DNA of 64,000 nucleotides, taken from contig CAVQQD010000003.1 of NCBI GenBank assembly GCA_963714975.1, positions 768,001 to 832,000 of the forward strand, given 5' to 3'. Shown here piece by piece: positions 28,550 through 46,153 of this stretch; position 1 is the stretch's first letter; each line of letters opens with the position of its first letter. Below the pieces are notes generated by a model. The model saw only the letters and a program-made list of their open reading frames with translations, was not told the DNA's origin and searched no databases. Source of the stretch: an uncultured Gammaproteobacteria bacterium (GTDB lineage Bacteria; Pseudomonadota; Gammaproteobacteria; JAURND01). Made by a program: the position numbers and the translations under genes.

Positions 28550-31228
28550 ATGTCATCACAAACCAAACTTGAAATCAAACCTCCATCCTCCACGCAACTA
28601 ATTCAATCGGATGGCGCCGTGTCAATTTCTTTTAACATTCGCTACAAAGATTTATCTTTTGATAATAGAGACAATCCCTTGGGTGAGGGTGCTTATGGAA
28701 AAGTTTATAGAGGGAAATGGGATTTTAATACCGTAGCCATTAAGGAATACACTGCACAAGATTTTTCTGAGAAAACTCAAAAAGAAATCCGTACGGAAGC
28801 TTCTGTCATGGCACAAGTCAGTACTACGTCTGATTATTTGGTGCGTCTCAAAGGTATGAGTTTAGAAAAACCCCATTATTGTTTGGTGATGGAGTATATG
28901 GGTGGTGGTGATTTGTACCATTATTTGCACAGTAATCAAGATATTTCATGGGAGGCCCGTTATCGTTGGGGTTCGGATATTTGTATTGGCTTGCATCATT
29001 TACACAGCAAAGATATTTTGCATCGTGATTTAAAAAGCTTAAATGTCCTACTCGATAGTAATGGTCGCGCTAAATTATCAGATTTTGGTATGGCAAAAAT
29101 TAAAGCCAGCTCTTCGGTTAGTACGAAAGGAGGGTTTAAAGGCACCTTGTTATGGGCTGCTCCCGAGCTTTTTAAGCCTCATAGTAAACCCACTAAAGCT
29201 GCCGATGTTTACAGTCTTGGCATGGTACTTTGGGAATTAGCCAGTAGAGAAATTCCATTTAAGAATGCAGGAAATATGGCGATGGCTTGGATTATGCAAG
29301 GCACCCAAGAAGAAGTACCCGCAGATACTCCCCCTGAATTTAAAACGGTGATTCTCGATTGTTGGCAAGCGCCTGAAAAGCGTCCCGAGGCTAAAGTATT
29401 GGCCGGACAGCTCGATCAATTATGTCAAACCGCTCAAAAAACTGAATTAAAAGAAACAGTGGCGTCATCGAGTACCAGTCCCAGTTCTTTTGGTAAAAAA
29501 CTGAATGATCTATTTGCCCCTATTCCGCTTATCAGCCAATTGACCCTTAAACCCATTGATATTAAGACAGCTAAGAAAACAGAAGAAAAAGAAATAGCTC
29601 ACTTTATGGCGCAATCCAGCTTGATGACGCATCAATCCTCTGGTACAACACAAGTCTCGACGACTGCTCCTTCTCTACATGCCAGTCAACCGGCGTTTTT
29701 TGGCGGAGCCAGTAGCTCTTCTAGCACTTCAACCAGTGAAGCCAAAACAAAAGTAGTTCCCTTGGATGAAAAAAGTCGCCAACAATTGATGCCGCTACAA
29801 AATGAATTAATTCAAGCTTGCGAAAATGGTAGTTTAGCGAAAGTTAAGGCCGCCATTGGCAAAGGGGCTTTAGTCGATTTACCCAACGAACAAGGTAACA
29901 ACCCGCTGTATTGTGCCGTGTATGGCATGAATCCTGAGGTAGTGAATTATGTCATTGCACAACTTGGTGAAAATGCTCCTGCCAATTCTTGGCAAGCGTG
30001 TGAAGAACATAACAAAAAACACTATGGACAAACCTATTTAAACATGAAATTTGCGGATGACTTATTGATAAAAATTGAATCCAATGAATTTTTAGCGGAA
30101 TATCATCTAGTTCAAGCACGAAAAATGATGAAAGATGAGACCAATAAGCATTGTGAGACTTTTGATGCTTTCAAACAGCGGAAGAATGGGGGACGCCGTA
30201 TTACGTGGTTGACCGATTATCGAGATCTCGATGGGCGGGTCACACAGATGACAGAGACAGGGTATGAAGTTTATAGAAATCAAATTAAGCAGGCGATGGA
30301 GGGATTACAGGTGGCACAAATTAGTCAGTTGGTTGGTAAAAAACTGAATGATCCATTTGCCCCTATTCCACCCGTTGATAACAGCCACTTTTACCTCATC
30401 GATATTAAGACACCTAAAACAGAAGAAAAGGAAAGCACCCGCTTTATGACGCAATCCAGTCTGGTGACGCAACAATCCTCTGGTACAACACAAGTCTCGA
30501 CGACTGCTCCTTCTCTACATGCCAGTCAACCGGCATTTTTTGGTGGAGGTAGTAGTTCTTCTAGTACTACATCGAGTGAAGACAAAATCAAAGAGGTTCC
30601 ATCGGATGAAAAGAAGCACCAGCAATTGATGCCACTACAAAATGAATTAACCACTGCCTGCGAAAATGGCAGCTTAGCGAAAGTTAAGGCCGCCATTGGC
30701 AAAGGGGCGTTAGTAGATTTACCCAATGCCCAAGGTAAAAATCCTCTGTATTGTGCCGTGTATGGCATGAATCCTGAAGTAGTGAACTATGTCATTGCGC
30801 AACGAAGTGAAAATGCGCCTGCTTCTTGGCAAGGTTGTGAAGAGCACAACAAAAAACACTACGGACAAATCTTTTTAAACATGGAATTTGCGCCTGTCTA
30901 TTACCAAAATTGGCACGATTTACTGTTGAAGATTAAATCTAATGATTTTTTGGCAGACTATCATCTTAAACAGGTTCAAAAGTATTGTGATAAGAAAAAC
31001 GCTGATTGGTACACAAGCTTGGAGCGATTGATAGAATGGTTGGGGCGGTGGGACCTAGTGTCACCAGGGTATTGGGTGGAGTCGATTCCTAGTTCGTGGG
31101 CTGCGGTGCGCAACACTGAGCTAGGGTACCAGGTTAACAGGAGCCAAATTAAGCAAGCAATTGAGGGGTTACAGGCGGCGCAAACCAATCAGTCAGTGAG
31201 TATGACTGGTAGTACGAGTACGAATTAG
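28550..31228 (+). CDS. Paralogous TKL-type kinase with two tandem ankyrin-like C-terminal units, copy 2
   Basis: GEGAYG, HRDLKSLN, DFG, WAAPE; internal repeat units start near 29492 and 30335; upstream region also duplicated. Confidence 0.9.
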   Translation: MSSQTKLEIKPPSSTQLIQSDGAVSISFNIRYKDLSFDNRDNPLGEGAYGKVYRGKWDFNTVAIKEYTAQDFSEKTQKEIRTEASVMAQVSTTSDYLVRLKGMSLEKPHYCLVMEYMGGGDLYHYLHSNQDISWEARYRWGSDICIGLHHLHSKDILHRDLKSLNVLLDSNGRAKLSDFGMAKIKASSSVSTKGGFKGTLLWAAPELFKPHSKPTKAADVYSLGMVLWELASREIPFKNAGNMAMAWIMQGTQEEVPADTPPEFKTVILDCWQAPEKRPEAKVLAGQLDQLCQTAQKTELKETVASSSTSPSSFGKKLNDLFAPIPLISQLTLKPIDIKTAKKTEEKEIAHFMAQSSLMTHQSSGTTQVSTTAPSLHASQPAFFGGASSSSSTSTSEAKTKVVPLDEKSRQQLMPLQNELIQACENGSLAKVKAAIGKGALVDLPNEQGNNPLYCAVYGMNPEVVNYVIAQLGENAPANSWQACEEHNKKHYGQTYLNMKFADDLLIKIESNEFLAEYHLVQARKMMKDETNKHCETFDAFKQRKNGGRRITWLTDYRDLDGRVTQMTETGYEVYRNQIKQAMEGLQVAQISQLVGKKLNDPFAPIPPVDNSHFYLIDIKTPKTEEKESTRFMTQSSLVTQQSSGTTQVSTTAPSLHASQPAFFGGGSSSSSTTSSEDKIKEVPSDEKKHQQLMPLQNELTTACENGSLAKVKAAIGKGALVDLPNAQGKNPLYCAVYGMNPEVVNYVIAQRSENAPASWQGCEEHNKKHYGQIFLNMEFAPVYYQNWHDLLLKIKSNDFLADYHLKQVQKYCDKKNADWYTSLERLIEWLGRWDLVSPGYWVESIPSSWAAVRNTELGYQVNRSQIKQAIEGLQAAQTNQSVSMTGSTSTN

Positions 31229-46153: not shown

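Follow-up and report, generated by a model that had tools for sequence, protein, structure and literature searches.

In the agr system of Staphylococcus and the comQXP system of Bacillus, a hypervariable stretch runs from the signal-making gene or genes into the neighbouring histidine kinase, where it covers the sensor part; conserved sequence lies on either side of this stretch and takes in the catalytic core of the kinase. The signals of both systems are ribosomal peptides, their sensors are membrane domains, and the variants are alleles of different strains. In the Lqs system (lqsA-lqsR-lqsS), an autoinducer synthase lies beside a sensor kinase and a receiver-type regulator. Here we describe a computational analysis of a gene cassette in a stretch of 64,000 nucleotides, referred to as the window, from the genome of an uncultured Gammaproteobacteria bacterium (GenBank assembly GCA_963714975.1, contig CAVQQD010000003.1, positions 768,001 to 832,000). 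The cassette has a leftward operon with a cyclodipeptide synthase (CDPS) pseudogene, a membrane histidine kinase (HK1), a stand-alone receiver and a small open reading frame (ORF), and a divergent rightward operon with a nonribosomal peptide synthetase (NRPS) and a hybrid histidine kinase (HK2). We give about even odds (a probability of roughly 0.5) to the reading that the cassette represents two back-to-back synthase-plus-sensor signalling units, one working with a cyclodipeptide and the other with an N-formyl-dipeptide, a reading in which the products, their binding by the kinases and the output are inferred.

In the first of these units, a tRNA-dependent CDPS would make a diketopiperazine and HK1 would perceive it through a cytoplasmic PAS domain like that of VqmA, while a putative three-helix PQ-loop/SemiSWEET-like module in HK1 would either let the molecule through to the PAS domain or itself be part of the sensor. 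HK1 would then phosphorylate the stand-alone receiver, perhaps in partnership with the small protein. In the second unit, the NRPS would formylate, epimerise and condense two amino acids and release an N-formyl-D-Xaa-L-Yaa dipeptide, for which HK2 would be the cognate cytoplasmic receptor. Since the first unit is nearly identical across the copies of the cassette in this genome, it would serve as a shared channel, and since the second module of the NRPS and the PAS sensors of HK2 differ together between copies, the second unit would provide a set of private channels. With its own CDPS dead, the window copy could still respond to cyclodipeptide from the three paralogues that are intact, and its NRPS-HK2 unit is intact.

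Parts of this picture have precedents. CDPSs have been described in Legionella, Rickettsiella and chlamydiae, with a suggested role in host manipulation (Aravind et al. 2010, PMC2922099), and an XYP-type enzyme of Legionella lansingensis makes cyclo(Gly-Glu), kinases being unmentioned in the portions of that article considered here (Gondry et al. 2018, PMC5816076). PAS domains have been counted among the most frequent non-biosynthetic domains in the vicinity of CDPSs, whose products have been suggested to be quorum-sensing signals (Skinnider et al. 2018, BMC Genomics 19:45, PMC5767969). The latter is a one-sentence remark at the level of domains; in the portions of the text considered, the word "kinase" is absent, as are PQ-loop/kinase fusions, CDPS-kinase fusions, an NRPS partner and a multi-copy mosaic. 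The original prediction had spoken of an undescribed circuit, which is too broad for the CDPS-PAS association and the quorum-sensing idea, both already published. An NRPS partner, a family of six such cassettes and a hypervariable block of synthase and sensor do appear to be new as far as our searches go: literature searches on CDPSs with histidine kinases or two-component systems, on PQ-loops with kinases, and on NRPS formyl-dipeptides in quorum sensing returned nothing on such systems. With the Legionella Lqs system the window has in common a layout principle and the same broad bacterial group. By contrast with Lqs, Pfam detected neither an LqsA/CqsA-type pyridoxal phosphate-dependent synthase nor a CqsS-type six-helix sensor in any ORF of the region, and from its predicted domains we place the locus outside the Lqs family.

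Searches of the 2.56-Mb genome with tblastn, combined with ORF maps, located six paralogous cassettes, the window copy and five others (L001-L005, Table 1). Comparison of the DNA of the window and L001 in 300-bp bins revealed a mosaic. Identity is 76-98% over 31400-40100, save one intergenic bin at 67%, about 50% over 40100-44900, and 81-95% over 44900-46400. Binned identity also placed the NRPS-proximal 600 bp of the divergent intergenic region at 89-96%. The same pattern was obtained when the proteins of the window copy were compared, domain by domain, to those of all other cassettes (for the CDPS, the L001 copy was the query). The small ORF, the receiver, all three parts of HK1, the formylation (F) domain and a condensation remnant of the NRPS are 78-99% identical, the CDPS 83-87%, and the DHp, CA and receiver domains of HK2 83-99%. 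The first-module adenylation, thiolation and epimerization domains (A1-T1-E) are 70-95% identical to those of L001 and L003 and 29-46% identical to those of L004 and L005. The condensation, adenylation, thiolation and thioesterase domains of the second module (C2-A2-T2-TE) reach only 27-42% everywhere, one 52% match spanning only 29% of the thioesterase (TE). Beyond the gene boundary, the second PAS domain of HK2 is 39-44% identical and the first has no detectable relative in any cassette.

At the edges of this variable block, in the NRPS, identity breaks exactly at the linker between E and C2, near residue 1702, and in all six HK2-type kinases it switches about 25 residues ahead of the phospho-accepting histidine. 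When compared with one another, the six HK2 sensors share 21-48% identity, apart from one 97% pair (L004/L008), and the six cores 84-94%. Synonymous divergence (dS) between the window and L001 is 0.25 in HK1, 0.29 in the F domain, 0.21 in A1 and 0.33 in the HK2 core, and in the conserved blocks on both sides it spans 0.16-0.37, save for the N-terminal fragment of the CDPS (0.72); the ratio of nonsynonymous to synonymous divergence (dN/dS) in these blocks is 0.08-0.23 (0.13-0.23 in the HK2 core). Given the similar dS on both sides and the low dN/dS, the flanks of the mosaic are therefore best read as young or homogenised and under purifying selection. The block formed by the second NRPS module and the PAS-PAS sensor, by its sequence divergence, is either ancient or exchanged, and has apparently been kept together across the gene boundary.

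The C2-A2-T2-TE domains and the PAS domains of HK2 form the same kind of hypervariable block as in agr and comQXP. Differences from those systems are that the putative signal enzyme is an NRPS, that two soluble PAS domains are the predicted sensor and that a single genome contains the variants as paralogues; with no ribosomal peptide and no membrane sensor, we regard the relation as one of analogy and not of membership. In their multiplicity within one genome, the cassettes may be likened to the Rap-Phr families.

A sceptical account of the same data would be that the cassettes are decaying segmental duplications that moved along with mobile DNA, that the mosaic is a by-product of gene conversion and that none of it has a present function. 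Damage is indeed widespread, as at least one gene is broken or missing in five of the six cassettes, including the CDPS and the small ORF of the window, and mobile elements are present in the form of a DDE transposase, a group II intron reverse transcriptase, an IS605 element, an integrase and the inserts in the NRPS that resemble miniature inverted-repeat transposable elements (MITEs). We nevertheless find this account very improbable. The dN/dS of 0.08-0.23 at dS of 0.16-0.8 shows that purifying selection has long acted on HK1, on the receiver and the CDPS, on the F and A1 domains and on the HK2 core; L001 is wholly intact, as are the window NRPS (3006 aa) and both window kinases; and the pairing of CDPS and kinase is conserved across genera.

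That conservation was evident from a survey of CDPS loci in other genomes. CDPS matches were found in five of 41 related genomes, including the source genome, whose order comprises nine genomes only. In both genomes of the same family that have a CDPS, a PAS kinase follows immediately downstream, one of the two being interrupted where the contig ends. A scan of a species-genome collection identified 19 CDPS loci, three of which are actinobacterial (Nocardia, Streptomyces and Mycolicibacterium) and had no kinase neighbour in BLASTP searches. In 15 of the other 16 loci, which are not independent as one layout is common to five Legionella species, the CDPS stands immediately next to a PAS histidine kinase, which is on the same strand downstream (seven loci) or upstream (one), divergent (two) or convergent (five). 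These neighbour kinases were confirmed by Pfam in 12 plus one cases and called by BLASTP only in two. The lone exception, L033, has a contig end 255 bp upstream of its CDPS. Source organisms include a Coxiellaceae metagenome-assembled genome (MAG), Legionella parisiensis, L. bozemanae, L. dresdenensis, L. resiliens and L. anisa, Tatlockia, and Francisellaceae and Legionellales MAGs. In addition, three proteins of 863-988 aa are single-chain fusions with the order CDPS-PAS-HATPase(-REC, the receiver), as exemplified by P0212 (CDPS 3-243, PAS 266-372, HATPase 528-632, REC 783-860). The linkage of synthase to kinase, whose absence among homologues would have refuted the original prediction, was thus found for its CDPS half; for the NRPS half it was found in four of the six cassettes within the source genome and in none of the F-domain NRPS loci considered outside it (one in the same family and 11 from metagenomes, several of them short), and no NRPS stands beside the CDPS in any of the loci of CDPS relatives.

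Two of the surveyed loci have further neighbours. In L025, from a Legionella MAG, an FAD-dependent oxidoreductase of the DAO family (10786-12165) comes after the CDPS, with the PAS kinase divergent upstream, and the cyclodipeptide may be tailored in some lineages. In L039 (927-12941), from a MAG labelled as an archaeon, a CDPS-PAS-kinase pair follows immediately on a protein of 2886 aa in which Pfam recognizes a TcdA/TcdB pore-forming domain (E 2e-112).

The CDPS of the window is a pseudogene of the XYP subfamily, as judged from its motifs and its matches to solved structures. Searches with its fragments against Pfam and NCBIfam models gave zero matches, and the assignment made in the original prediction was borne out by a sequence search of the PDB, in which the N-terminal piece (33742..34044) matched residues 7-81 of 5OCD at E 1e-15 and the C-terminal piece (33291..33767) matched residues 96-231 at E 1e-29, the two together covering the Rossmann-like domain; 5MLQ was likewise matched by the pieces. 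These entries are XYP-type Fdum-CDPS of Fluoribacter dumoffii, which uses two Gly-tRNAs, and Nbra-CDPS, respectively (PMC12945691). The two enzymes are the closest solved relatives by sequence and share the motifs of the window CDPS, in which ISVGQ, DYVLEEC and EVYPS.RN aligned and were identical to those of 5OCD; they differ from the window copy in that the latter is frameshifted and that its operon partners are a PQ-loop/PAS kinase and a receiver rather than tailoring enzymes. An alignment of CDPSs showed S48, Y193, E196, Y214 and P215 to be invariant. We take these to be the catalytic serine, the Tyr/Glu pair and the Y-P signature, assuming the roles assigned in the literature on AlbC.

The window CDPS is split over two frames because of a frameshifting deletion of 26 bp relative to the three intact paralogues (alignment columns 309-334), with its junction between 33757 and 33756. 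This is a true deletion, rather than a homopolymer slip or error. The intact paralogues, in L001, L002 and L004, are about 250-267 aa in length. The leftward operon therefore differs from the one first proposed in that its CDPS is not a single ORF and its small ORF is truncated. The gene order was upheld by ORFs, Pfam and PDB matches, and the ORF coordinates reproduce the reported spacings, namely 13 bp from the CDPS stop to the HK1 start, a 4-bp overlap of HK1 and the receiver, a 2-bp gap thereafter and, in the rightward operon, an interval of 49 bp between the stop codon of the NRPS and the HK2 ATG at 44060.

HK1 has Pfam matches to a PQ-loop, PAS_4, HisKA (E 2e-11) and HATPase_c (E 8e-26). 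The PQ-loop match scores 21.3 bits, just below the cut-off of 22. The same N-terminus is 38-47% identical to ORFs that pass the cut-off (a 90-aa ORF in L037 at 30 bits and one in L036 at 22.3 bits), and the PQ motif is invariant in its alignment with free-standing PQ-loop ORFs of about 90 aa. A hydropathy scan found hydrophobic segments at 7-32 and 67-88, two of the three expected helices being above threshold, and PF04193 is listed in 26 of the 120 best HK1 homologues. In L024, the Coxiellaceae MAG, a free-standing 94-aa PQ-loop ORF adjoins the CDPS, and in HK1 and L036 the module is fused to the kinase. We take the PQ-loop module, on these matches, to travel with the CDPS-kinase system.

An AlphaFold model of the HK1 PAS domain, based on an alignment of 46 sequences, had a mean predicted local distance difference test score (pLDDT) of 91.6. 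In a fold search with this model, the six best PDB matches were all chains of VqmA (E 9e-9 to 4e-8, template modelling (TM) score 0.78-0.80, about 21% identity). In Vibrio cholerae, VqmA acts as receptor for the autoinducer DPO (PDB 6UGL, 6IDE and 6KJU); this ligand of its PAS domain, named in the titles of the PDB entries, is a small pyrazinol ring derived from amino acids and is diketopiperazine-like. The modelled likeness is at the level of the fold, and VqmA is a transcription factor with PAS and helix-turn-helix domains, whereas HK1 is a kinase. DPO also derives from threonine dehydrogenase chemistry, with no involvement of a CDPS.

Among the other cassettes, HK1 is 89-99% identical in four. 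The stand-alone receiver, which has a receiver domain only according to Pfam, is 88-94% identical in L001, L004 and L006 with a dN/dS of 0.10-0.20. The small ORF is truncated in the window (85 aa, compared to 114 and 145 aa in paralogues), diverging after "LLNR", and its dN/dS is 0.21-0.36. It had no match in Pfam at E<=0.01, matches only at the level of chance at E<=10, and no usable match in the ESM Atlas. A role as a histidine phosphotransfer (Hpt) protein was considered for it, as HK2 has no Hpt domain, and was dropped for want of family or ESM Atlas support.

The VqmA-like fold bears on the question of what these kinases sense. They might be ordinary cluster-situated regulators whose PAS domains respond to something other than the peptides, for example redox state, oxygen or metabolites of a host, and thereby switch peptide production on or off. 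PAS domains bind ligands of many kinds, and LOV, FixL, NifL and BvgS are near-equal to VqmA in the list of folds, BvgS being the best match by sequence; regulators are also commonly encoded beside biosynthetic genes. However, a generic cue would leave unexplained why identity among the HK2 sensors has fallen to 21-48%, or below what can be detected, when the cores of these kinases have kept 84-94%, and why the variable sensor is continuous with the variable NRPS module. The single-chain CDPS-PAS-kinase fusions, and adjacency that persists through four gene orders, argue for a relation closer than that of ordinary regulation. We therefore regard simple cluster regulation as unlikely, and prefer the reading in which each kinase senses the product of its neighbouring synthase.

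For the second unit, Pfam identified in the NRPS Formyl_trans_N/C, two AMP-binding domains, two PP-binding domains, two Condensation-family stretches and a Thioesterase. The two modules had been recognized from the sequence at the outset, and the formyltransferase, the epimerase-type domain and the thioesterase are additions to that description. The best PDB matches of A1 are LgrA (E 9e-187) and GrsA PheA (1AMU, 1e-130), and GrsA and TycA constructs, presumably epimerase-domain structures, match the first of the two condensation-family domains (about residues 1255-1705). The predicted architecture is F-A-T-E-C-A-T-TE. From this order of domains, an N-formyl-D-Xaa-L-Yaa dipeptide acid is therefore the expected product, rather than a diketopiperazine. 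Consequently, the suggestion of two dipeptide-making enzymes would stand for the NRPS, with a formyl-dipeptide in place of a diketopiperazine, and fails for the CDPS of the window, which is dead.

The fusion of a formyltransferase ahead of A1 is also the arrangement of the LgrA initiation module of linear gramicidin synthesis (PDB 5ES5, 6MFZ). In contrast to LgrA, the window NRPS has two modules only, ends in a thioesterase, has a kinase gene downstream and has a spacer of about 340 residues between F and A1 that contains in-frame MITE-like palindromes and a condensation-domain remnant. The MITE-like element (35922-36324) has 56-nt inverted arms at 35922-35977 and 36172-36227 and further copies of 22-27 nt, and the same spacer is the site of the NRPS frame breaks in L003 and L005. 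To compare the A domains, ten putative specificity-pocket columns, chosen after the Stachelhaus positions, were taken from an alignment. Read in this manner, the window, L001 and L003 have the A1 pocket DAWSIAAICK in common and differ in their A2 pockets (DVQAYAEVVK, DILMLGLVWK and DFWSIGMIH-, respectively), with other pairs in L004 and L005. The specificity residues of the A domains thus differ in every cassette. For the products of the window and L001 enzymes, they would predict that the first residue is Phe-like in both and that the second is not the same.

HK2, the PAS hybrid kinase predicted to follow the NRPS, was confirmed by Pfam and its coordinates (two PAS domains, HisKA E 6e-10, HATPase_c E 3e-27 and Response_reg E 2e-19). 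Its relatedness to HK1 was likewise substantiated, as the two are 33% identical over 378 aa (E 9e-61) and the motifs quoted for them are all present. The NRPS and HK2 genes overlap or abut in the cassettes. No transmembrane segment was detected in HK2 (maximum hydropathy 1.14), nor an Hpt domain with Pfam. A model of the HK2 sensor (pLDDT 87.4) consists of PAS, helix and PAS; a fold search with it returned only generic tandem-PAS proteins at TM scores of about 0.3, which is uninformative on the ligand, and a search of PDB sequences gave nothing significant (BvgS at 0.055, VqmA entries at E of about 1.2). The sensor of the window HK2 resembles kinases from other organisms (P0135, 42% identity over 99% of the sensor) to the same degree as it does its paralogues.

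Several observations weigh against two signalling units. No exporter is evident in the window, its CDPS is broken, and the prevalence of damage among the six cassettes suggests that the family may be decaying. For HK1, the lead of VqmA in the fold search is only about tenfold, LOV and other PAS folds starting at E 7e-8, and the best sequence match of the PAS domain is that of BvgS (E 3e-4). The route of output is also incomplete: HK2 has a receiver and no Hpt domain, the receiver protein lacks an output domain, and the small ORF matches no family. There are only four NRPS-HK2 pairs, all different, which places their co-variation beyond statistical testing, and recombination in the conserved flanks could keep the block together without any relation of ligand and receptor. 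Lastly, an F-domain NRPS in the same family of genomes (G002; F domain 40% identical) has no kinase or CDPS within about 10 kb, and neither was in view in the best 11 of 80 metagenome F-domain loci, several of which are short; the remaining loci of the 80 are shorter, weaker matches, as expected of ordinary formyltransferases.

The genes that flank the cassettes raise a different possibility. Paralogues of a gene for a eukaryote-like Ser/Thr kinase with ankyrin repeats, which in the window is convergent on the CDPS operon, were found by tblastn beside five of the six cassettes (the window, L001, L002, L004 and L005). Such genes are typical of host-directed effectors, the relatives of the source genome are Legionella- and Coxiella-like, and CDPSs have been proposed to act in host manipulation by intracellular bacteria (Aravind et al. 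2010). Potentially, the N-formyl peptides or diketopiperazines are aimed outward at a eukaryotic host or at competitors, as effectors or antimicrobials, with the kinases only timing their production and the diversity of the NRPS modules reflecting an arms race with the targets in place of signal specificity. This would leave the hypervariability of the co-located sensor unexplained, and the near invariance of CDPS and HK1 between copies fits poorly with an arms race. In addition, the fusions join the CDPS to a sensor and not to a secretion device. We consider an outward aim quite improbable and favour the two synthase-plus-sensor units. As to their position, the Ser/Thr kinase-ankyrin genes (26328-28145 and 28550-31228 in the window, both on the plus strand) sit at the small-ORF/HK1 end, and in L005 they replace the CDPS operon; they may be part of the duplicated unit or its regulated cargo.

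The coordinates of the window features and the state of the related loci are collected in Table 1.

Table 1. Features of the window, in window coordinates, and related loci elsewhere in the source genome.
Feature or locus	Position	Strand	Remarks
Eukaryote-like Ser/Thr kinase with ankyrin repeats	28550..31228	+	Pfam PK_Tyr_Ser-Thr E 4e-53, Ank_4
Small ORF	31225..31551, or 31225..31482 from the ATG giving the 2-bp gap	-	85 aa from that ATG
Stand-alone receiver	31485..31880	-	131 aa; Pfam Response_reg E 3e-20
HK1	31877..33274	-	465 aa; intact membrane histidine kinase
CDPS pseudogene, XYP type (predicted)	33288..34044	-	Two frames; 5OCD and 5MLQ matches
Divergent intergenic region between CDPS and NRPS operons	34045..34989		Binned DNA identity
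NRPS	34990..44010	+	3006 aa, intact
NRPS, conserved part (F, MITE-like insert, C remnant, A1, T1, E)	34990..40099	+
NRPS, hypervariable part, second module (C2, A2, T2, thioesterase)	40100..44010	+
HK2 hybrid kinase	ATG 43988 or 44060, end 46153	+
HK2, hypervariable sensor (PAS, helical linker, PAS)	44060..44932	+	Pfam and model
HK2, conserved core (DHp (HisKA), HATPase_c, receiver)	44945..46153	+	Pfam
L001	C2 11-26 kb		All six genes intact
L002	C2 388-396 kb		HK1 and CDPS intact; NRPS reduced to F domain; group II intron reverse transcriptase/maturase between CDPS and F domain (6667-8541)
L003	C2 1168-1181 kb		DDE transposase in CDPS (13025-14590); HK1 frameshifted; NRPS in three pieces
L004	C2 1216-1230 kb		NRPS in four pieces, HK2 in two
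L005	C2 1107-1119 kb		NRPS in three pieces, and HK2; no CDPS operon
L006			CDPS remnant and receiver, outside the six cassettes
L007			Lone HK2-like kinase; IS605 OrfB beside kinase (1832-3040)
L008			Lone HK2-like kinase; rve integrase beside kinase (2459-3307)

Other features of the region and of the related loci can be noted briefly. The divergent intergenic region contains a perfect tandem duplication of a 14-nt unit at 34656-34683, and an Rfam search of 30500-47000 at E<=0.1 gave zero matches. Beyond HK2, at 46485-48220 on the reverse strand, an intact DarG antitoxin gene (NCBIfam E 6e-138) adjoins a DarT toxin gene that is split into two ORFs, 47918-48220 corresponding to positions 1-79 of the DarT model and 47549-47836 to positions 108-201; apparently the toxin is broken and the antitoxin has been kept. 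In L007 (3687-7999), an HK2-type kinase with a single PAS_3 sensor and a core 84-92% identical to the others lies directly ahead of an enzyme that has one A-T-TE module and specificity residues of its own, which may constitute a third kind of synthase-sensor pairing in this genome.

The genome encodes 14 HisKA kinases, of which 11 are cassette members (five HK1-type and six HK2-type). A larger picture is that most histidine kinases of this intracellular-type gammaproteobacterium serve a self-made peptide language, in which a shared cyclodipeptide channel is combined with private N-formyl-dipeptide channels whose second NRPS module and tandem PAS sensor co-diversify as an exchangeable block; we advance this tentatively, as a possibility that we hold to be doubtful. 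If true, reduced, host-associated bacteria can invest heavily in self-signalling. What CDPSs do for intracellular bacteria of the Legionella-, Coxiella- and Rickettsiella-like kinds has been a standing question ever since their discovery there, and the conserved, in some cases fused, CDPS-PAS-kinase unit offers a testable answer. If the NRPSs and kinases are cognate pairs, the cassettes would provide a natural panel of four combinations of ligand and PAS sensor for studying the evolution of specificity and for obtaining orthogonal sensors. Under the larger picture, the system would be the first non-ribosomal, cytoplasmically sensed counterpart of the agr and ComX groups, and signalling through the cyclodipeptide channel would be the first function assigned to CDPSs of Legionella-like bacteria.

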